Positions 2,250 through 28,954 of a DNA stretch of 64,000 nucleotides are shown piece by piece. This stretch comes from Actinomycetota bacterium. Its GTDB lineage: Bacteria; Actinomycetota; UBA4738; JBJMLN01. Under the pieces are notes generated by a model. The model worked only from the letters and a program-made list of their open reading frames with translations. It had not been told where the DNA came from and made no database searches. Made by a program: the position numbers and the translations under genes. The stretch lies in assembly GCA_045805285.1 (NCBI GenBank), contig JBJMLN010000135.1, positions 5,656-69,655 on the forward strand, in the 5' to 3' direction. Every line of letters starts with the position of its first letter. Position 1 is the stretch's first letter.

Positions 2250-3509
2250 ATGGCGCACTCCGCACCGCCCGAGACCGAGCAGCCGGGCGCCGAAGGACTC
2301 CTCTCCGTCGCGCAGGCGCGAGAGCGTGTCCTGCAACGGATCCAACCGCTCGCGCCGATCGCGCTGCCGCTGCAGGAAACTTTCGGCTGCACGCTCGCGG
2401 AGGACATGTTCGCGGAGGGAGACCTTCCGCCGTTCTCCTCCTCCGCGATGGACGGATTCGCGGTGCGCTCGAGCGACGTCGCGGACGCGGGTTCCGGTGG
2501 GGTGGACCTCCGCGTCGTCGGGCGCGCGTTGATCGGCCAGCGGCCGGAAGGAACGGTCGGACGCGGCGAGGCATTCCGCATCGCCACCGGCGCGCCGATC
2601 CCCGCGGGTGCCGACGCGATCGTGCCGGTCGAGAACACGGTCCCGGGCGAGGACGCCGTTCGGGTCCTCGAGTCGGTTCCGCCAGGACGGCACATCCGCC
2701 CGGTGGGAGAGGACGTCAAGGAGGGTTCCGTCCTCGTCCGCGCGGGTCGCAAGCTCGGTGCGCCGGAGATGGGGCTGCTCGCGTCGGCCGGCCACTCCCA
2801 GGTGTTGGCGAACCCGCGCCCGCGCGTGATCGTGCTCTCCACCGGCGACGAGCTGGTGGAGCCTGGCCGGGAGCCGCGCTACGGCCAGATCCCCGACTCG
2901 AACGCCTACACGTTGTTCGGAGCGCTCCGCGAAGCAGGAGCCGTTCCGTACCTCGCCGGCATCGTGCGTGACGACGTCGACCAGCTGCGGGACACGATCT
3001 TCAACCACCTCGTGCAGGCGGACGCCTTCATCTCCTCCGGGGGCGTATCGATGGGGGACCGCGACGTCGTGAAGGCCGCGTTCTTCCGGCGTGGAGATCT
3101 CGATTTCTTCCGCGTCGCGATGCAGCCCGGCATGCCGCAGGCCTTCGGGCTGATTGAGGGGAAGCCGTACTGGGGACTGCCGGGGAACCCGGTCTCCGTG
3201 TTCGCGTCGTTCGAGGTGTTCATCCGTCCCGCGCTCATGAAGATGATGAACCGCCGTGAGCTCTTCCGGCCGGAGATCACCGCGAAGCTCTCGGCCGACA
3301 TCAGCGGGCCGCGCGGAAAGACGCAGTTCGCGCGGGTGCTCGTGCGACGCACGCCGCAGGGAAGGGTGGCCGAGCCGACCGGTGGGAGCGGCTCCAACCT
3401 GATCTCCACGATCGCCAGGGCGAACGGGCTCGCGATCGTGCCGCCCGGTGTCGAGACGCTCCGCGCGGGCGCCGACTGCCGCGTGATGCTCTTCCGCCCG
3501 CCCGAATGA
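2250..3509 (+). CDS. moeA: Molybdopterin molybdotransferase MoeA.
   Basis: The 420-aa tail of track ORF 1734..3509 matches MoeA, including GGVSMGDRD and the PGNPVS C-terminal domain. The ATG is at 2250. Confidence 0.85.
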   Translation: MAHSAPPETEQPGAEGLLSVAQARERVLQRIQPLAPIALPLQETFGCTLAEDMFAEGDLPPFSSSAMDGFAVRSSDVADAGSGGVDLRVVGRALIGQRPEGTVGRGEAFRIATGAPIPAGADAIVPVENTVPGEDAVRVLESVPPGRHIRPVGEDVKEGSVLVRAGRKLGAPEMGLLASAGHSQVLANPRPRVIVLSTGDELVEPGREPRYGQIPDSNAYTLFGALREAGAVPYLAGIVRDDVDQLRDTIFNHLVQADAFISSGGVSMGDRDVVKAAFFRRGDLDFFRVAMQPGMPQAFGLIEGKPYWGLPGNPVSVFASFEVFIRPALMKMMNRRELFRPEITAKLSADISGPRGKTQFARVLVRRTPQGRVAEPTGGSGSNLISTIARANGLAIVPPGVETLRAGADCRVMLFRPPE

Positions 3510-3985
3510 CCGTTCGCGGCGCGCCGGACCCCGCACAGGAGCAGCCGGCAAGGATCGTCGAGGTCGGCGGCAAGGAGGTCACCGACCGGCTCGCCGTCGC
3601 GGAATGCACGCTCTACACGACGCCCGCGGCGGTCGCGCACCTCCTCGAGGGCACGGAGAAGGGAAAGCCGATCGAGGCGGCTCGCATCGCGGGCATCCTC
3701 GGCGTGAAGCGGACGCCCGACCTCCTTCCGTTCTGCCATCCGATTGCCGTGACGGGCGCCGAGCTCGCGATCGAGCCCGACACCGCCGCGGGACGGATCG
3801 TCGTACGTGCGACCGTCCGAGCCCGAGACCGCACGGGGGTCGAGATGGAGGCCCTCACGGGCGCCGCGGTCGCGGCCCTGTCCCTCTACGACACCGCCAA
3901 ACCGTTCGACCGGTCGGCCTCGATCGGGGATCTCCGCCTCCGGGAGAAGCGAGGCGGCAAGAGCGGCGCCTACAACGCGCCGTGA
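3506..3985 (+). CDS. moaC: Cyclic pyranopterin monophosphate synthase accessory protein MoaC.
   Basis: The 159-aa product shows the MoaC fold signature (KGKPIEAARIAGILGVKRT, ALTGAAVAALSLYD). The start overlaps the moeA stop in an ATGA arrangement. Confidence 0.85.
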   Translation: MTVRGAPDPAQEQPARIVEVGGKEVTDRLAVAECTLYTTPAAVAHLLEGTEKGKPIEAARIAGILGVKRTPDLLPFCHPIAVTGAELAIEPDTAAGRIVVRATVRARDRTGVEMEALTGAAVAALSLYDTAKPFDRSASIGDLRLREKRGGKSGAYNAP

Positions 3986-4132
3986 GGGGTCTCCGCGGGA
4001 AAGGCGATATCCGACCCGGGGCCAGCGAATTCCATGCCTGGTATTTGAGGCCCAAGATGTTGGGTGGTAGCCTCGGTTTCCAGCCCAGATGTGGCCGGAC
4101 GAGCACGTCGGGGGCACCGGAGGACATGGGCT

Positions 4133-5449: not shown

Positions 5450-5523
5450 GGGGGTGTAGCTCAGCCCGGTAGAGCGCTGCCCTCGCACGGCAGAAGTCAG
5501 GGGTTCAAATCCCCTCACCTCCA
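5450..5523 (+). tRNA. tRNA-Ala, anticodon CGC.
   Basis: Manual fold: acceptor GGGGGTG/CACCTCC with a G3:U70 wobble (the alanine identity element). D arm GCTC-AGCCCGGTA-GAGC. Anticodon stem CTGCC/GGCAG with loop CTCGCAC. T arm AGGGG-TTCAAAT-CCCCT. Discriminator A. CCA is not encoded. Confidence 0.85.
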
Positions 5524-5981
5524 CCCGCCGTTCCAGCAGGTCGGGAGCCCGCTCCGTCGGTGTCAGGACGCGGGTCGCTTGTGCCGGTTCCGCCCGCCGC
5601 ATGCTTCTGTCGTTTGAGGTAGTCGCGCATCCGCTGTGGATAGCCGACGCGCGCGGCGTCGAGGATCGGGATCTCGCGCTCTCTAGCCAGCTCGCGGAGG
5701 TACGCGTCGTCCGAGAGCGTGAAGCGTCGATGCTCTCCGTCTCCGGCGACGAGCACCTGGGAGAGCGGGTGCATCACCGTCTTCGGTTCCACGTACGCCT
5801 CGACGCCGCTGCGCGACTCGATGTACTCCGTCATCTCGTCGCGATGCTCGTACGGCCCTTGCACACCCTTGAGTCGCCGTGACATCCGGTCGGCACGCGA
5901 CTCGAACTCGTATTTCCCTCCGGTGCCGTCGTTGCGCTGGAGGTACTTGCCGGCATCCTCGAATCGTTTGCGCCATCCCAC
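5505..5981 (-). CDS. Hypothetical protein with a Gly/Thr/Ala-rich C-terminal tail. Its last ~19 nt overlap the 3' end of tRNA-Ala on the opposite strand.
   Basis: Track ORF with a GTG start. Strong GC3 codon bias throughout. Conserved-looking core: EMTEYIESRSGVEAYVEPKTVMHPLSQVLVAGDGEHRRFTLSDDAYLRELA. Confidence 0.55.
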   Translation of the reverse strand: MGWRKRFEDAGKYLQRNDGTGGKYEFESRADRMSRRLKGVQGPYEHRDEMTEYIESRSGVEAYVEPKTVMHPLSQVLVAGDGEHRRFTLSDDAYLRELAREREIPILDAARVGYPQRMRDYLKRQKHAAGGTGTSDPRPDTDGAGSRPAGTAGGGEGI

Positions 5982-6837: not shown

Positions 6838-6960
6838 TTACCTGGCGTTACGCTTCTTCAAGGTCTTCTTCTTGGTCACGCGGGTGGCGGCGGTCTTCGC
6901 ATCGCTCTTCGCGGGCTTGGTCGTCGCCGGCTTCGCCGGAGCAATCTTCTTCTCTGCCAT
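6838..6960 (-). CDS. Unannotated 40-aa lysine-rich basic protein (MAEKKIAPAKPATTKPAKSDAKTAATRVTKKKTLKKRNAR). It falls below the ORF-track length cutoff.
   Basis: ATG preceded by GCAGGAGGTAGGGAA, an AGGAGG Shine-Dalgarno with 7-nt spacing. TAA stop. Followed directly by the hairpin terminator. Confidence 0.55.
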   Translation of the reverse strand: MAEKKIAPAKPATTKPAKSDAKTAATRVTKKKTLKKRNAR

Positions 6961-7063
6961 TTCCCTACCTCCTGCTCGAACGGTGAGGTCATTTTCATGA
7001 CGCGGTCGTCCCGGTGTCTGTGTTGGCCGTCACGAGCCCGGTGTGCTCTTCGTCACGCCGTGG

Positions 7064-7157: not shown

Positions 7158-8237
7158 ATGGACCGGCCGGCCGACGACATCTCGAGGGACGAGCTCCAGC
7201 TTGCCGCGCGCAACGCGGGCATGCCGCAGGAGGCGCTGGCCTACGACCTGACGCCGGTCGGCCTGCATTACCTCCTGATCCACTACGACGTCCCCGAGGT
7301 CGACGTCGACGCGTGGCGTCTCCGGGTCGACGGGGGAGTCGGCCGCTCGCTCGAGCTTTCCTTGGACGATCTGCGGAACCGCGAACGGCGAACGGTCGCG
7401 GTCACGATGGAGTGCGCGGGGAACGGCCGCACCCTCTACGACCCACGCGCGATCAGCCAGCCGTGGCTCCTCGACGCGGTCGGAACCGCGGAGTGGACGG
7501 GAACTCCGCTCGTTCCGCTGCTGGAGGAGGCCGGCGTCGACGAGAACGCGACCGAGGTGGTGTTCACGGGCCTCGACCGCGGCATCGAAGGCGGAGAGGT
7601 CCAGACCTACGCGCGGAGTCTCCCGATCGAGGAAGTCCGTCGCGACGAGCTCCTGCTCGCCGACGAGATGAACGGCGCTCCGCTCTTGCCGCAGCACGGC
7701 GCTCCGCTCCGCCTGCTCGTCCCCGGTTGGTACGGGATGGCGTCGGTCAAATGGCTCGCCCGCATCACGCCGGTGCTCGAGCCGTTCGACGGCTACCAGA
7801 ACCGCGCGGGCTACCGGTTCCGGCGTTCCGAAGAGGAGGCCGGTGAATCCGTCACGCGGATCGAGCCACGTTCGCTCATGGTCCCTCCCGGGATCCCGGA
7901 GTTCATGACGCGCGCGCGTCATCTCGCGCCCGGAACGGTCACGCTCCGCGGCCGCGCGTGGTCGGGGTGGGGACACATCGAACGCGTCGAGATAAGTACC
8001 GACGGCGAGACGACGTGGAGTGACGCCCGGGTCGACCGGCGAGGAACCTCCGACCGCGCCTGGGTCGGGTGGTCCTTCGAGTGGAACGCCGAGGAGGGGG
8101 AGCACGTGCTGTGCTCCCGTGCGACGGATGCGACCGGCCGCACCCAGCCGGATCAAGCGAACTGGAACGTCGGCGGCTACGCGAACAACGCTGTCCAACG
8201 CATGCCGGTGACCGTCTCGGCGGCGGTCGACGGCTAG
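7158..8237 (+). CDS. Sulfite-oxidase-family molybdopterin oxidoreductase (Mo-co binding domain plus dimerisation domain).
   Basis: TMECAGNGRT carries the Mo-ligand Cys loop. LLADEMNGAPLLPQHGAPLRLLVPGWYGMASVKWL is the sulfite oxidase / YedY-type signature. ATG at 7158 preceded by GAAGGA. Confidence 0.8.
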   Translation: MDRPADDISRDELQLAARNAGMPQEALAYDLTPVGLHYLLIHYDVPEVDVDAWRLRVDGGVGRSLELSLDDLRNRERRTVAVTMECAGNGRTLYDPRAISQPWLLDAVGTAEWTGTPLVPLLEEAGVDENATEVVFTGLDRGIEGGEVQTYARSLPIEEVRRDELLLADEMNGAPLLPQHGAPLRLLVPGWYGMASVKWLARITPVLEPFDGYQNRAGYRFRRSEEEAGESVTRIEPRSLMVPPGIPEFMTRARHLAPGTVTLRGRAWSGWGHIERVEISTDGETTWSDARVDRRGTSDRAWVGWSFEWNAEEGEHVLCSRATDATGRTQPDQANWNVGGYANNAVQRMPVTVSAAVDG

Positions 8238-8294
8238 GTTCGGGAAGTCCCAGCTGTCACCCTCCGGGAGGGGTGGGGGCATAGGGTTGAGGCG

Positions 8295-9149
8295 ATGACG
8301 CGCTTTCTGGTCCGCACCGTTTTCTCGGTCGCCGTGTCGATCTGCCTGGTCGTCCCCGCGGGCTGGAGCGTGACCGCTGCGGAGCGCTGCACGATCGACG
8401 GAACGTCCGGAGCGGACGTCCTTGTCGGGACCGACGGACGTGACGTCCTGTGCGGCCACGGCGGAGCGGATCTCCTCAAGGCTCGCGCGGGCGACGACCT
8501 TCTCCTCGGCGCCGACGGCCGAGACCGCTTGAACGGCGGCAATGGAAACGACCGCCTCCGGGGCGGCGCCGGAGCGGACAGCGCGGTCGGCGGAAAGGGC
8601 TCCGACCGCGTGGACGGTGGTGCCGGAGCGGACATATGTCTGTCCGCGTTCGACCACACCGTCGGCAACGATGTCATCGTCGGCGGTCCCGGTCGCGACT
8701 CGTACGTTGCGGACCACGGCGACGTCGCGAACGGAGCGAACGCCAGCCGGCCGTGCACGCTGCGAGCCAAGCTCGTCGGCGATCGCAAGGGTCCCTCCGG
8801 GTCGCTCGACGTGAATGGCAAGTCCTCCCCGGGTGCTGCCGAGAGTTGGTGCTGGCGCGAAAGCAGTCGCTCTTCCTACTGCGCCGACACCGGGATCGAC
8901 TTCTCGAACCTTCCGGCGTTCGACGTCCCGCGGGACGCCGCACTCTTCGTCCATGGCAACGCCGATTCGGCCGGAGCGGAGCTGTGGCGACCCACCGACG
9001 GCGTTTTCCCCAGCCACCGGATCGCGACGGTCGATCTGCGAGGCGGCTCGGATGCGCTGCGGGTCCCACCCGGCGCGTATCTCCTCCGCGTCAGCGGTCG
9101 TTGGAGCCGTGGCACCGCGGCGTACTGGTTCGAGCTCGACGTCGCCTGA
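8295..9149 (+). CDS. Secreted protein with an N-terminal signal peptide and six or more hemolysin-type (RTX) calcium-binding nonapeptide repeats (GGxGxDxL).
   Basis: MTRFLVRTVFSVAVSICLVVPAGWSVTAAE is a signal peptide. Repeats: GTDGRDVLCGHGGADLLKARAGDDLLLGADGRDRLNGGNGNDRLRGGAGADSAVGGKGSDRVDGGAGAD. Confidence 0.7.
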   Translation: MTRFLVRTVFSVAVSICLVVPAGWSVTAAERCTIDGTSGADVLVGTDGRDVLCGHGGADLLKARAGDDLLLGADGRDRLNGGNGNDRLRGGAGADSAVGGKGSDRVDGGAGADICLSAFDHTVGNDVIVGGPGRDSYVADHGDVANGANASRPCTLRAKLVGDRKGPSGSLDVNGKSSPGAAESWCWRESSRSSYCADTGIDFSNLPAFDVPRDAALFVHGNADSAGAELWRPTDGVFPSHRIATVDLRGGSDALRVPPGAYLLRVSGRWSRGTAAYWFELDVA

Positions 9150-9156
9150 GACGCTC

Positions 9157-9996
9157 GTGCGGTTCGGGCTGAGCGTCCAGAACTTCGGAACCTACGGCGA
9201 CCCAGCTCTCCTGGCGGATCTCGCTCGTGACGCCGAGGCGGCGGGCTGGGACGGCTTCTTCGTGTGGGATCACCTCCTCCGCGGAGACGCGCCCGTCGCG
9301 GACCCGTGGATCTCTCTCGCCGCCATCGCCGTCGCGACGGAACGCGTGAGGATCGGCCCGATGGTGACGCCGCTTCCTCGCCGCCGGCCGTGGCAGGTCG
9401 CGCGCCAGGCGGTGACGCTCGATCACCTCTCGGACGGAAGGGTGACCCTCGGCGTCGGGCTCGGTTCGTCTCCGCAGATGGAGTTCGCTCCGTTCGGCGA
9501 GGCGACGCAGAACGCGGAACGTGCCGCGGTCGCCGACGAGGCACTTGAGATCATCACGTGCCTGTGGACCGGAGACCCGGTCGACGCCCGTGGCCGATTC
9601 ATGCTCAGAGGAGCGAGGTCACTGCCGCTCCCGGTTCAGCGGCCGCGCATCCCGATCTGGGTCGCGGGCAACTGGCCGAACCGTGGTCCGCTCCGTCGCG
9701 CCGCGCGCTACGACGGCGTGTTCCCGCAGCGCATCGCGACGGATCCGGACGATTGGATGCTCTCTCCGGACGACGTCCGTGCCGTCCTGGCAGTCGTCGG
9801 TGAGTACCGAGAACTGGATGAACCGTTCGACGTCGCGGTCGCGCTTTCCGACGAGGGCGACGCCTCTCGGCGGCCGGATCTGATCGCCGAATACGCCGGT
9901 GCCGGCGTCACCTGGTGGATGGAGGGCGTGCTCGAAGACGCGGGAGACCTCGCCGAGATGCGAGCGCTGATCCGCCGCGGTCCGGTGGCCGCCTGA
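9157..9996 (+). CDS. LLM-class (luciferase-like) F420-dependent oxidoreductase.
   Basis: VRFGLSVQNFG, LGVGLGSSPQMEFAPFG and the IWVAGNWP C-terminal motif match TIGR03619-type LLM proteins. GTG start. Confidence 0.75.
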   Translation: MRFGLSVQNFGTYGDPALLADLARDAEAAGWDGFFVWDHLLRGDAPVADPWISLAAIAVATERVRIGPMVTPLPRRRPWQVARQAVTLDHLSDGRVTLGVGLGSSPQMEFAPFGEATQNAERAAVADEALEIITCLWTGDPVDARGRFMLRGARSLPLPVQRPRIPIWVAGNWPNRGPLRRAARYDGVFPQRIATDPDDWMLSPDDVRAVLAVVGEYRELDEPFDVAVALSDEGDASRRPDLIAEYAGAGVTWWMEGVLEDAGDLAEMRALIRRGPVAA

Positions 9997-23629: not shown

Positions 23630-23648
23630 CTAGTCTGGCCGAGACTAG
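23630..23648 (-). terminator. Hairpin CTAGTCT ggccg AGACTAG overlapping the mocA stop codon.
   Basis: Perfect 7-bp inverted repeat. Confidence 0.35.
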
Positions 23649-24202
23649 ATCGCGTCAGGAGGCACATCGAGGTCCGGAGGCGCGTCGCGGTCGATCTTCA
23701 CGTCGTCGACCTCGTGAGGGCCGAAAAGAGCACGCGCGCCCGAGTCTCCCGTCAGCGCGAGCGCATCGGGCCAGATCTCTCTCGAGAGGAGCGCCGGACC
23801 GGGCGCGTTCCGGTACCGGAGTCGAACGATCGGTGCGCGGGTCTGGCTGAACCGCTCGACGAGCGCGCGGATCTCCTCCGGATCGACCCCGGGCTGGTCG
23901 GCGAGGAGGACGACAACCCCTTCGCTCGATGGATCGAGTGCTCGGAGGCCAGTCGCGAGCGACGTCGATTGGCCCTGCGCGAAGCGTTCGTTCACCACGA
24001 TGCGCGCGTTCGGGGGGAGCGTGATCGCCGCCTGAACCCGTTCAGCGTCGTGGCCGAGGACGACGACGATCTCGTCGAGTTCCGCCGCCGCAGCTGCGTC
24101 GATCGCGTGTTGGACGAGCGGCTTCCCTTCGAACTCGAAGAGCTGCTTCGTGGAACCGAAGCGTGACGCCGTCCCCGCCGCGAGGACGATCGCGGAGATC
24201 AA
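23645..24202 (-). CDS. mocA: MobA-like nucleotidyltransferase (molybdenum cofactor cytidylyltransferase MocA-like).
   Basis: LISAIVLAAGTASRFGSTKQL matches the GT-A NTP-transferase motif. TTG start with GAAGGA at -5. Forms a TTGA overlap with coxG. Confidence 0.7.
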   Translation of the reverse strand: MISAIVLAAGTASRFGSTKQLFEFEGKPLVQHAIDAAAAAELDEIVVVLGHDAERVQAAITLPPNARIVVNERFAQGQSTSLATGLRALDPSSEGVVVLLADQPGVDPEEIRALVERFSQTRAPIVRLRYRNAPGPALLSREIWPDALALTGDSGARALFGPHEVDDVKIDRDAPPDLDVPPDAI

Positions 24203-24816
24203 CGATCCTTCGCGTCGATCCCGAACAGCTTTCGGAACCAGCGCACGATCGACGACACCAGCGCCGAGAGGCCGAGCCGGAGGCCACCGACGGGAGCGGC
24301 CGCCTGTGGCGGAGCCGGTGCCAGCTCGGGCGACTCCTCCGTCCCCTCCGGAACCGCGGGTGTTGCCGCCTCCGCGGCCATGTTCGTCCGAAGGCAGCTG
24401 GCGAACTGCTGGGTCAGCTTTGCCGAGACGTCGGGCAGCAATCCTCGGGAGAGTTGCGCGACCGCTCCGGTCAGCGTGACGTCGGCCTGCATGCGGACCT
24501 TCGTCGAGTCTCCGTCCCGTTCCAACGTCGATGTGACCGTCGCGTTGGCGGCTCCCTTTCCGCGCTGCTCCATCCCAGACGCATGGAGGACCACACGGTG
24601 CGTCGCGTCGACGCGATCCTGCATCGTCACGGTCCCCGCGAATGCCAGCGCCACGGGCCCGAACTTCATCGTCACTCGGCCTTTCCAGTTGCGGTCGTCG
24701 ATCGTCTCCGTCAGCTGTGCGCCCGGCATGCACGGTGCGACCTTGTCGACGTCGAGGAGATACCGCCAGACGTCGTCGATCGGCGCGGGAACCTCGAACT
24801 CGTTCGTGATCTCCAT
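24199..24816 (-). CDS. coxG: CoxG-family SRPBCC protein (carbon monoxide dehydrogenase subunit G-like).
   Basis: MEITNEFEVPAPIDDVWRYLLDVDKVAPCMPGA is the classic CoxG N-terminus. Confidence 0.8.
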   Translation of the reverse strand: MEITNEFEVPAPIDDVWRYLLDVDKVAPCMPGAQLTETIDDRNWKGRVTMKFGPVALAFAGTVTMQDRVDATHRVVLHASGMEQRGKGAANATVTSTLERDGDSTKVRMQADVTLTGAVAQLSRGLLPDVSAKLTQQFASCLRTNMAAEAATPAVPEGTEESPELAPAPPQAAAPVGGLRLGLSALVSSIVRWFRKLFGIDAKDR

Positions 24817-24818
24817 GG

Positions 24819-25823
24819 TCAGCCTTCCCCGTGGATGGGCCCGCGGCGATCGCGGAGCGAACCTCCGCTGCGGCCCCGATCGACGGCGATGATCTCCGCG
24901 GTGATGGAGCTCGCGATCTCCCGTGGACCCTCCGCGCCGACGTCGAGCCCGGCGGGAGCGAACACGCGATCGAGGCCAGGATGCCCCTCGACCTCGACGA
25001 GGAGACGCTCTGTTCGTCCACGCGGTCCGAGCATGCCGATGTAGGGAACGGACGAGTCGAGCAGCGTGCGAAGTCGTTCGCCATCCGTCAGATAGGCGTG
25101 ATTCATCACGACCGCGAACGTCCGGTCGTCGAGAAGAACATCTGGAACCGGTTCCGACCGCGAGACGCACGCGACGTCCCATCCGAGCGCGCGACCGGCA
25201 TCGGCGAGCGCGGGGGCGTCGGATCGATCTCCGAAGAGCGCGAGCCGGATCGGCCGGCGGAGGAGCTCCACGAACGCCCGCGCACCGGTCGCGAACGAAA
25301 CGATCCGCGGCGCGCTCTGAGAAAGCGCCCGCTCCGCTGTGTCCGCGGCGTCCTCCGGCATCCAGCCGACCTGTGATGCGACGCCGTCCGCAGACAGCGC
25401 TAGGCGCGAGCCGGCGGAGTCGCCGTCCAGGAGCGTCACCAGCGCATGGTCGGAACGCTCACGAGCGACGGCCCGGACGTGATGAGCGAACGTGCGCGCG
25501 CTCGAGGACGGTTCCACGAACACCTCGATGACGCCCTGGCAGCCCATGCCGTAGCCGAGCTCCACCTCGTCGTCTGCGGTGAGATCGAACTCGCGGAGCA
25601 TCGGCATTCCACTCTCGGCGACGGCTCGAGCGTCGTCGACGAGCTCCGCCTCCAGGCAGCCGGGGCTGAGCGAGCCGATCGGATCTCCGCCAACGGGGAG
25701 CATCGCCCGCGCGCCGGGACGCCGGTACGAAGATCCACGGACGCCGACCACGGTCGCCAGCGCGAACGGTGCATCCCGTTCCACGAGAAGCTCGATTGCG
25801 GCGGCGATGTCGGGCGTTGCCAC
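24819..25823 (-). CDS. xdhC: XdhC/CoxI-family molybdoenzyme maturation factor.
   Basis: FALATVVGVRGSSYRRPGARM matches the XdhC_CoxI N-terminal domain, with a C-terminal Rossmann-like domain. GTG start selected by homology. Confidence 0.75.
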   Translation of the reverse strand: MATPDIAAAIELLVERDAPFALATVVGVRGSSYRRPGARAMLPVGGDPIGSLSPGCLEAELVDDARAVAESGMPMLREFDLTADDEVELGYGMGCQGVIEVFVEPSSSARTFAHHVRAVARERSDHALVTLLDGDSAGSRLALSADGVASQVGWMPEDAADTAERALSQSAPRIVSFATGARAFVELLRRPIRLALFGDRSDAPALADAGRALGWDVACVSRSEPVPDVLLDDRTFAVVMNHAYLTDGERLRTLLDSSVPYIGMLGPRGRTERLLVEVEGHPGLDRVFAPAGLDVGAEGPREIASSITAEIIAVDRGRSGGSLRDRRGPIHGEG

Positions 25824-25965
25824 GTTCGGATAGTAGCTATCTCCACCGCCCGCGACCGCCGCACGCTCGCGCTTTGAACGTGCTCGAACCTCCGTGTTAG
25901 AAAGGAGATTCCAGCGCCCGGGTCCCTTTTCCCGGCGCGCGCGTCCCCGTGGAAGGGGTGCTGCA

Positions 25966-26382
25966 ATGGCCTCGCTCAGCACGAAGGACATCAGCCTCGA
26001 TCAGGCGAACGCCGCAGTCGAGGCCGCAACGAAGAAGGCCGAGGAGATCGGCACGACGATGGACATCGCCATCGTCGACGCCGGCGCCAACCTCAAGGCG
26101 TTCGCGCGGATGGACGGCGCCTGGCTCGGCAGCATCGACATCGCGATCAAGAAGGCCAGCACCGCACGGTGGTTCGATATGAACACCGGCGACATCGGCG
26201 GCCTCTCCCAGCCGGGCGGCGCGCTGTACAACATCGAGCACTCGAATGAGGGCCTGATCACGTTCCCCGGCGGCATCCCGATCAAGGACGGCGACACGGT
26301 GATCGGCGCGATCGGCGTCTCGGGCTCGACCGTGGAGAACGACCACACCGTCGCGGCGGCCGGCGCAGCAGCCGTCCAGTAG
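25966..26382 (+). CDS. GlcG / HbpS-like heme-binding protein (DUF336).
   Basis: [43 protein letters not shown] and [20 protein letters not shown]. Confidence 0.75.
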
Positions 26383-27620: not shown

Positions 27621-28478
27621 TTAGGCCTGCGAGGAGGCGTTCGCGCGCGCGGACGCCTCCTCCAGCGCGCGTCGCACGAGGATCTCGGCCAGCGCTCTTC
27701 GGTACTCCGCGCTGCCCGAGATGTCGCTCGGCGGGCTGGTTCCCTCCGCCGCCGTGGTGGCCGCGGTTCCGGCGTCCGCGCCGTCCGAGAGCGCCTGTTC
27801 GACTCGTGTCGCGCGGATCGGCCGGTCGCCCATGTTCGTGAGGGCGACCCGGGCGGTTCCGTCAGCGTGCGTGAGGGCGGCGACGCCGACCAGCGCCCAG
27901 TCCGCAGCGCGGCGGTGGAACTTGATCGCGCTCCAACCCGTTCCCGGCCGGAGCTTCGGGACGCGGACCTCCGTCAGCATCTCCGTGGGGGAGAGTTCCG
28001 TCTCGAAGAGTCCGGTGAAGAACGTCGTCCCCGGCTGCGTCCGCGTGCTTCCGTCCACGCCGCGGATCCTCAGCTCCGCGTCGAGCGCGACGACGGCCGC
28101 GGGGAGATCCGACGCCGGGTCCGCATGCGAGAGCGAGCCGCCGATCGTTCCGCGATGCCGGACCTGGGGGTCGCCGATGTCCGCCGCGACGGCTTGCAGG
28201 AGCGGACACCAGCGTTCGAGAAGGTCGCTTCGCTCGAGGTCCGCGTGACGCGTGAGCGCGCCGATCGCGATCACGTCGTCCTCCTCGCGGATGTAGCGGA
28301 GCTCGTCGAGACGCCCGATGTCGACGAGAAGAGCAGGCTGCGCAAGCCGGAGCTTCATCAGCGGCAGAAGCGAGTGACCTCCCGCGAGGAGCTTTGCCTC
28401 GTCTCCTCGGTCGGCCAGGATGCCGAGCGCGTCGTCGATCGTCGCCGCGCGCTCGTACTCGAACGCCGCCGGGATCAC
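27621..28478 (-). CDS. coxM: FAD-binding molybdopterin dehydrogenase subunit (CoxM/XdhB family).
   Basis: [18 protein letters not shown] start region, [16 protein letters not shown], and the CO dehydrogenase flavoprotein C-terminal domain. GTGA overlap with coxS. Confidence 0.8.
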
Positions 28479-28954
28479 GTCGAACGCTCCGCGCCGGCGG
28501 CGTCGAGCACTGCGCGGACGATGTTGTGGTAGCCCGTGCAGCGGCAGAGGTTTCCCTCGAGACCGCGCCGGACGTCCTCCTCGGTGGGCGAAGGGTTGTC
28601 CTTCAGGAGGGCGACCGAGGCCATCACCATGCCGGGCGTGCAGAACCCGCATTGAAGCGCGTGGTTGTTCCGGAAGGCCGCCTGAACGGGGTGCATCTCT
28701 TCGAGCTCCGCGCCGGCTGCGAGGCCTTCGATCGTCGTGATCTCCGTCCCGTCCGCTTGGACGGCGAGCACGGTGCAAGACTTCACCGACTCTCCGTCGA
28801 TGAGGACCGTGCACGCACCGCAGGACGTCGTGTCGCACCCGACGTTCGTTCCCGTGAGAGCGAGCGTCTCCCGCAGGAAGGAGACGAGGAGCGTGCGCGG
28901 CTCCACCTCCGCCTCGCGGACCGAATCGTTGACGGTGACGCGGACCGACCGCAC
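28475..28954 (-). CDS. coxS: (2Fe-2S)-binding small subunit (CoxS/XdhC family).
   Basis: [11 protein letters not shown] and [11 protein letters not shown] cysteine clusters. Confidence 0.9.

Follow-up and report, generated by a model that had tools for sequence, protein, structure and literature searches.

The question raised by the stretch of actinobacterial DNA analysed here (64,000 nt of contig JBJMLN010000135.1, hereafter the window) is whether a gene encoding a sulfite-oxidase-like molybdoenzyme and the gene that follows it, encoding an exported protein with RTX-type calcium-binding repeats, form one functional system. The host is an uncultured soil actinobacterium whose DNA is GC-rich in the window (66-72% GC). 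Gene A (7158-8237, + strand, ATG to TAG) encodes a 359-aa enzyme of the sulfite oxidase (SUOX) family and gene B (8295-9149, + strand, ATG to TGA) a 284-aa protein composed of a signal peptide, an RTX block and a C-terminal domain. The product of gene B is 100% identical to an NCBI protein from a metagenome-assembled genome (MAG), annotated as "calcium-binding protein [Actinomycetota bacterium]". A preliminary description of this DNA had proposed an operon in which a periplasmic or secreted sulfite-oxidase-like enzyme is associated with a calcium-binding partner. The data presented below rather favour two genes that are adjacent and functionally independent, a reading that we hold to be fairly probable, and they define a new domain family at the C-terminus of the gene B product.

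In silico analyses assign the product of gene A to the SUOX superfamily. Both the molybdenum cofactor (Moco)-binding domain PF00174 (E 5.2e-54, residues 42-213, profile positions 1-168 of 169) and the dimerisation domain PF03404 (E 1.5e-15, residues 250-352) are matched, so that the sulfite-oxidase fold initially proposed was confirmed, and the nearest solved structures are those of Starkeya novella SorA (E 2e-52), chicken sulfite oxidase (E 1e-40) and Sinorhizobium SorT. With SorA, SorT and the sulfite oxidases of animals and plants, gene A shares the two-domain Moco fold and a molybdenum-ligand cysteine in a C-A-G-N context: the equivalent of chicken Cys185 is Cys86, with ECAGNGR aligned to QCSGNSR of SorA and QCAGNRR of the chicken enzyme, and it is invariant in all 84 orthologues of gene A. 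The counterparts of chicken Arg190, Tyr322 and His140 are also aligned and invariant (Arg91, Tyr219 and His42, respectively). Gene A differs from the chicken oxidase and SorA at the position of chicken Arg138 and SorA Arg55, where it has Leu40 (codon 7275-7277); here GLHYLLIHYD (7260-7289) faces FFTRNH and FFVRYH. This leucine is found in 84/84 orthologues, as is the surrounding subfamily motif G-L-H-Y-L-L-x-H-[YF]-D. The missing arginine belongs to the conserved substrate-binding residues, as known from the mutant structures 2ca3 and 2a9a-c and, reportedly, from Bailey et al. in 2009 (cited in PMC4760952). Since an invariant leucine replaces one canonical sulfite-binding arginine, the substrate of gene A may not be sulfite. 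The scores obtained with the NCBIfam equivalogs SoxC, SorA and SorT (201, 197 and 174 bits) also fall far under the respective cut-offs of 420, 600 and 570 bits. The protein belongs to the SUOX superfamily, but its assignment as a sulfite oxidase is not secure. The subfamily is widespread, occurring in Thermoleophilia-like and other Actinomycetota.

Further differences set gene A apart from SorA and SorT, which reside in the periplasm (PMC4760952): it has no Tat signal, no heme domain and no cytochrome c subunit encoded beside it. Neither a Sec nor a Tat signal was found on the window protein, and the sole in-frame upstream extension of gene A, from a GTG at 7014, is polar, rich in Arg and Pro and devoid of a hydrophobic h-region. 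When the region located 5' of the conserved N-terminus (...ISLEELQLA...) was translated in the 84 orthologous genes, an in-frame stop was observed 2-10 codons before that N-terminus in many of them (e.g. L012, L014, L015, L025, L048, L073), which rules out an export signal for the subfamily taken as a whole. It is established that Moco enzymes are folded and loaded with their cofactor in the cytoplasm and that their export requires a Tat signal (reviewed in PMC10609526). The lack of a signal peptide, together with the upstream stops in orthologues, leads us to predict that the gene A product is cytoplasmic, and the periplasmic or secreted location first put forward for it is not upheld. No cytochrome gene was detected within +-5 kb of gene A, and no other periplasmic redox partner is encoded nearby.

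The product of gene B, on the other hand, is predicted to leave the cytoplasm, which would place the two proteins in different compartments. Its N-terminus (MTRFLVRTVFSVAVSICLVVPAGWSVTA/AE; residues 1-28, 8295..8378, + strand) displays, as judged by eye, the n-, h- and c-regions of a cleavable Sec signal, with a basic n-region (R3, R7), a hydrophobic core of ca. 17 residues and small residues at -3/-1 of the predicted VTA/AE cleavage site, which was read directly from the sequence. This layout is common to 11 full-length orthologues, and neither a twin-arginine motif nor a conserved lipobox Cys is present in the signal of gene B or of its orthologues. The RTX nonapeptide block extends over residues 36-147 (8400..8735, + strand) and matches PF00353 in 6 stretches (E 1.2e-24). 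On direct reading, residues 36-116 form nine uninterrupted nonapeptides (GTSGADVLV, GTDGRDVLC, GHGGADLLK, ... GGAGADICL), in which G occupies position 1 (A in one repeat), G position 4 and D position 6; 2-3 degenerate ones follow up to ca. residue 147, which gives ca. 11 GxxGxDxLx repeats overall. The signal-peptide protein with at least six repeats that had been recognised from the sequence is therefore real, its PF00353 match being confirmed and the direct reading raising the count. AlphaFold2 modelling of full-length gene B, based on a 13-sequence clade alignment, returned short strands at an exact 9-residue period; the predicted local distance difference test (pLDDT) score was ca. 75 for residues 31-110, with this shallow alignment, 52 overall and <50 for residues 134-223, the C-terminal part of this model being unusable. 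The modelled periodicity is consistent with a Ca2+-binding parallel beta-roll. Among the cysteines of the protein, Cys53 and Cys115 as well as Cys154, Cys186 and Cys196 in the C-terminal stretch are invariant in the 13 orthologues, and Cys32 is kept in 11 of the 13.

Tandem GGxGxDxUx repeats (PF00353) in an extracytoplasmic protein are likewise found in RTX proteins of Gram-negative bacteria, for example in the C-terminal beta-roll of serralysin and alkaline protease, in block V of CyaA and in NodO, the beta-roll of gene B being a predicted one. Characterised RTX blocks fold upon Ca2+ binding, and classical RTX proteins carry an uncleaved C-terminal type I signal after the repeats and are linked to genes encoding an ABC exporter and a membrane fusion protein (PMC3034196, PMC6891781). 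Gene B is unlike these in having a cleavable N-terminal Sec signal, repeats that lie N-terminal to a folded sandwich and no type I secretion system (T1SS) genes nearby: its C-terminus is a confidently folded beta-sandwich to the last residue rather than a type I signal, and neither an ABC exporter nor a membrane fusion protein is encoded within ca. 6 kb, in the window or at orthologous loci. The only ABC genes found, at 16.8-21 kb of the window, belong to a solute-binding-protein-dependent importer. The 2010 survey of Linhartova et al. listed RTX proteins in six actinobacterial genomes, none of which had a type I secretion system (PMC3034196). The statement that RTX proteins are uncommon in actinobacteria holds for that survey and no longer for current databases, in which the gene B search gave 3255 PF00353-type matches, several of the few organism-named ones being from Actinomycetota MAGs.

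The distribution of the two genes further indicates that they are neighbours in a single narrow clade. Full-length orthologues of gene B were found in only 12 further clusters (68-86% identity), all of metagenome or MAG origin, and all other matches cover the repeats only. The block composed of a divergent 40-aa open reading frame (ORF), the enzyme, the RTX protein and a downstream luciferase-like (LLM) gene occurs in every contig with enough flanking sequence (L001, L002, L004, L087, L088) and is partially represented in L003, L085 and L086. In the clade contigs the enzyme is ca. 85% identical and the neighbourhood is syntenic back to moeA-moaC, a combination which reflects inheritance of the pair within the clade. 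More broadly, relatives of the enzyme were sought in one genome per GTDB species. At least 548 were detected, of which the best 80 were examined (56-86% identity; Gaiellaceae, Solirubrobacteraceae, Acidimicrobiia, Nitriliruptorales, Micromonospora and others), flanks of +-6 kb being searched by tblastn, by a nonapeptide motif scan and with a hidden Markov model of the domain family found at the gene B C-terminus. A single species out of these 80, which belongs to the same clade (L005, from the genome of L001), has the repeats or the domain in this interval, and neither was found within 6 kb of the enzyme, there 56-66% identical, in the other 79. Nor did the 80 loci reveal any conserved neighbour family around the enzyme, the most frequent one occurring in 20/80. 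A conserved gene pairing in other genomes, whose absence the preliminary description had named as refuting its proposal, is thus essentially lacking (absent from 79/80 species), and on present sequence comparisons the adjacency of genes A and B appears to be lineage-specific synteny.

The transcriptional arrangement suggested by the intergenic sequences associates gene B with its downstream rather than its upstream neighbour. Genes A and B are indeed co-oriented, as reported, with exactly 57 nt from the stop of the former to the start of the latter, and no terminator-like hairpin was found between them, so that read-through from A to B is possible. The sequence that immediately follows the gene A stop varies among clade members; directly 5' of gene B, a motif TGTCAC-N20/21-TAGG(C/G)T-N7/8-ATG is present in 9/9 clade sequences (window, L001-L004, L085-L088), in the window as TGTCAC-N21-TAGGGT-N7-ATG (8255..8294, + strand, with TAGGGT at 8282-8287). 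Actinobacterial leaderless promoters show this arrangement, their TANNNT hexamer ending 7 nt ahead of the start codon. This conserved -10-like motif suggests that gene B may be transcribed from a promoter of its own into a leaderless mRNA; a sigma-70 consensus scan returned no promoter, the proposal being drawn from the TANNNT-like motif only. A Shine-Dalgarno-like GAGG precedes gene B in the window copy only. The public gene call of L086 (P0012/P0013) begins too far downstream and misses the conserved ATG of gene B.

The LLM gene (9157-9996, + strand, 279 aa) encodes a luciferase-like, F420-type oxidoreductase (PF00296, E 1.8e-43) with a TIGR03619-like match that is below cut-off. It starts 7 nt after the gene B stop in the window and 2-8 nt after it in most orthologous loci, a spacing which makes B and LLM the more likely co-transcribed pair. 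The exception is L087, in which a RibD_C (dihydrofolate-reductase-like) gene at 3560-4129 is inserted between the gene B orthologue and LLM, showing that the tight junction is not obligatory. Gene B and LLM are probably co-transcribed, which is likelier than gene B forming a functional pair with gene A. The possibility that LLM is a sulfonate monooxygenase of the SsuD type, supplying the gene A enzyme with sulfite, was considered and rejected: its best matches are F420-type LLM families, its SsuD score is 53 bits for a cut-off of 518 bits, and LLM is not located beside the enzyme in other genomes.

The C-terminal part of gene B (residues ca. 150-284; 8742..9146, + strand) has no match in Pfam or NCBIfam. 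The preliminary description of a C-terminal domain unrelated to the repeats and containing several Cys was accurate, this domain being ca. 135 aa long, with Cys154, Cys186 and Cys196, and corresponding to no family model. A profile built from the C-termini of the clade detected 114 matches at E<=1e-3 among 1.84 billion representative proteins, including 18 at E<=1e-10, the best reaching E 1.6e-17. In an alignment of 47 sequences (A3), C41, W42, C51 and G115 are invariant and D53, G128 and F134 nearly so. The family is recognised by a Cys-Trp pair, a second Cys 7-15 residues later, a near-invariant Asp in Cys-x-Asp, an invariant Gly in P-x-G-x-Y-x-L and a conserved strand W-x-x-G-[DS]-x-x-[FY]-x-F. 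The gene B domain combines a significant profile match with all of these motifs, C-W...C-x-D corresponding to Cys186, Trp187, Cys196 and Asp198. When modelled alone with the 47-sequence alignment, it was predicted by AlphaFold2 as an all-beta structure of 12 strands (pLDDT 92.5, predicted template modelling score, pTM, 0.86), and a Foldseek search with this model returned nothing below E 0.028; the model, of high confidence, is that of a generic beta-sandwich. The two invariant cysteines lie on adjacent hairpin strands of an exported domain, so that a disulfide (Cys186-Cys196) would be expected.

Members of the family occur in two main architectures. In the first, which comprises proteins of ca. 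170 aa, a single copy of the domain stands behind a lipobox or a signal peptide. The second comprises longer proteins (350-790 aa), in which a conserved cytoplasmic segment at the N-terminus precedes one transmembrane helix and 1-4 domain copies in tandem; one match has 8 tandem copies, and some members have PASTA or DUF6970. The lipoboxes and N-terminal membrane anchors, sometimes accompanied by PASTA, place the family outside the cytoplasm. Uncharacterised actinobacterial members, stand-alone or anchored, such as P0125, P0128, P0121 and P0131 share with gene B the C-W...C-x-D, P-x-G-x-Y and W-x-x-G motifs and the extracytoplasmic location, but differ from it in having no RTX repeats; among the matches seen, fusion of the domain to a beta-roll is confined to the clade of the window. 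The anchored type is represented by P0121, P0122, P0127, P0131, P0136, P0142 and ca. 25 others, in which the N-terminal segment reads M[TP]ERWERELxxL...PPRRQRVVAGVVAF; in some of them PASTA is found as well, together with ...C[RA]GSGIGG as a conserved C-terminus. Their organisation suggests a resemblance to anti-sigma or sensor proteins, the family itself being uncharacterised. A word-indexed search with the family alignment recovered 6 proteins and a metagenome scan with a narrower alignment (A7) a single 1.5-kb locus, while tblastn of the domain against the PLSDB plasmids gave no match. These data indicate that the C-terminal domain, of ca. 125 aa, is a previously undescribed and fairly widespread extracytoplasmic family.

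Several observations weigh against the independence of genes A and B. No terminator-like site separates the two, and the pair is found in every clade contig examined, which leaves read-through or shared regulation possible; export, Ca2+ binding and the ligand of the gene B product are themselves predictions. Moreover, when the neighbours of domain-family members were sampled in five lineages, a PF00174 gene was located within two genes of the domain gene in two of them (the window clade and the unrelated lineage L092/L096), a frequency above naive chance in a sample that is tiny and partly post hoc. In L092 (6001-8280) and L096 (244-2458), a domain lipoprotein gene is followed by a threonine-aldolase-like gene and then by a gene for a 207-aa YuiH-type PF00174 enzyme, with gaps of 8 and -4 nt; this different enzyme is cytoplasmic and 29% identical to the gene A product. 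The domain proteins of L092 and L096, which represent one lineage, are 44% identical vs 67-85% for their neighbours, which marks the domain protein as exported and fast-evolving. In a further lineage (L089-L091), a domain lipoprotein gene overlaps by 4 nt a gene encoding a persulfide-dioxygenase-like fusion of metallo-beta-lactamase and rhodanese (L091 2261-4185; L089 3-1120), with the cytochrome c maturation genes ccmA-B-C-E-F directly downstream and, in L091, a CoxL-like molybdoenzyme gene two genes upstream.

Such neighbourhoods would fit a looser module, in which exported C-W...C-x-D domain proteins share their regulation with SUOX-fold or sulfur-handling enzymes of the cytoplasm and might act on the envelope side when the cell responds to sulfite, to persulfide or to oxidative thiol stress, the Cys pair being redox-active and not structural. 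The window clade, where the domain protein directly follows a PF00174+PF03404 enzyme, the tightly spaced genes of L092/L096 and the persulfide-dioxygenase-like, ccm and CoxL-like neighbours of L089-L091 all speak for it. Two of the five sampled lineages (L093/L094 and the P0197 contig), however, have no such neighbour, the two PF00174 enzymes belong to different subfamilies, the neighbourhood of L092/L096 is wholly syntenic with an ordinary threonine aldolase as intervening gene, and the domain occurs near none of the 79 other window-type enzyme loci (0/79). We therefore regard this co-regulated module as unlikely, and equally doubt that genes of the new family recur, across distinct lineages of actinobacteria, beside those of cytoplasmic enzymes with a SUOX fold or a role in persulfide handling.

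It is still harder to sustain that the C-terminal domain is catalytic or metal-binding, in the manner of lytic polysaccharide monooxygenases (LPMO), cupredoxins or CopC, or carbohydrate-binding, which would make gene B a secreted enzyme or a metal chaperone. The invariant residues of the family are C, W, C, D and G, with no conserved His or Met, and hence neither a His-brace nor a type-1 Cu site; the His1 of an LPMO has to be the mature N-terminus, a position that the gene B domain does not occupy, and the N-terminal His1 "histidine brace" of AA9/AA10 LPMO is accordingly missing. This possibility is very improbable. There remains the partnership first proposed, in which a sulfite-oxidase-like enzyme located in the periplasm or secreted would work with an RTX protein that is secreted, binds Ca2+ and is encoded in the same operon, an arrangement presented as not known to have been described. 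The co-orientation, the short gap lacking a terminator-like site and the retention of the pair within the clade speak for it. It is largely refuted by topology, since neither the window enzyme nor its orthologues carry a Sec or Tat signal and the two products are in different compartments, as well as by the clade-restricted pairing and the want of a cytochrome or other periplasmic redox partner nearby, so that its chance of being correct is minimal.

If genes A and B are functionally independent, as we favour, their products would act as follows. The gene A product would be a cytoplasmic, heme-less and probably homodimeric enzyme that binds Mo-molybdopterin via Cys86. Gene B would form a transcription unit with the LLM gene that follows it, perhaps under a promoter of its own, and its product would be exported unfolded via Sec, with removal of the signal peptide. 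Outside the cell, the ca. 11-turn beta-roll might fold once filled with Ca2+ and then display or stabilise the C-terminal sandwich, itself probably stabilised by the Cys186-Cys196 disulfide and possibly acting at the cell envelope, where it would bind a ligand or have a structural role.

The remaining molybdenum-related genes of the window do not modify this picture. All those initially listed for which a match was sought (moeA, moaC, a mocA-like gene, xdhC, coxS and coxM) were confirmed. The moeA (about 2250-3509) and moaC (3506-3985) genes come after a galU-like nucleotidyltransferase gene and are separated from gene A by two hypothetical genes, a tRNA-Ala(CGC) gene (5450-5525, + strand) and three minus-strand genes. 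Beside this tRNA, L001 and L002 have a BNR_2 sialidase-like gene and other genes and the window a 158-aa and a 238-aa minus-strand gene, a difference in content that indicates a variable region. The coxS and coxM genes, xdhC and the mocA-like NTP_transf_3 gene are grouped at 23.6-29 kb on the minus strand (intervals 27621-28954, 24819-25991 and 23645-25084), 15-20 kb from the gene A block, the intervening genes encoding a lysA-like decarboxylase, a CrtO-like desaturase, a short-chain dehydrogenase/reductase (SDR), a metallo-beta-lactamase, an ABC importer, an aminotransferase and a hydroxyisobutyrate-dehydrogenase-like protein. The coxS (2Fe-2S) and coxM (FAD) genes are side by side, with no adjoining coxL for the large Mo subunit, and are flanked by genes for an alcohol dehydrogenase, an HbpS-like protein and an RDD protein; xdhC and the mocA-like gene lie 2-4 kb away, their starts being ambiguous owing to overlapping long ORFs. 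MocA and XdhC serve enzymes of the xanthine oxidase family, not SUOX enzymes. Thus, moeA-moaC and mocA/xdhC/coxSM are located in transcription units separate from that of gene A, and although the genes are real the locus does not qualify as unusually rich in molybdenum-cofactor biology in the sense first intended.

The upstream limit of the gene A transcription unit is the divergent 40-aa ORF (6838-6960, - strand; MAEKKIAPAKPATTKPAKSDAKTAATRVTKKKTLKKRNAR), which was taken from the ORF list, is rich in Lys, Ala and Thr and lies 198 nt 5' of gene A. Five related contigs (L001, L002, L004, L087 and L088) have a small gene call, of 40-51 aa, at this place. This ORF is preceded by a Shine-Dalgarno-like sequence and has no family match.

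Overall, a cytoplasmic molybdoenzyme and an exported repeat protein whose genes adjoin in one narrow lineage only do not amount to a new redox system, and the locus is mostly ordinary, its novelty residing in the new domain family and the unusual RTX architecture. For the enzyme, the consequence is that the "sulfite oxidase" annotation of a widespread actinobacterial subfamily devoid of the sulfite-binding Arg may be wrong. Gene B provides a clear case of RTX repeats in a Sec-exported protein of a probable monoderm, where they precede a folded domain, an order opposite to that of classical type I secretion. Should the association with SUOX-fold and persulfide-handling enzymes prove true, the domain family would add to sulfur-oxoanion or thiol-stress metabolism a component on the envelope side that had gone unrecognised, fused in the clade of the window to a Sec-exported Ca2+ beta-roll. 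With at least 114 sequence clusters, an invariant Cys pair and no Pfam or NCBIfam model, this domain could in any case be registered as a family and studied.

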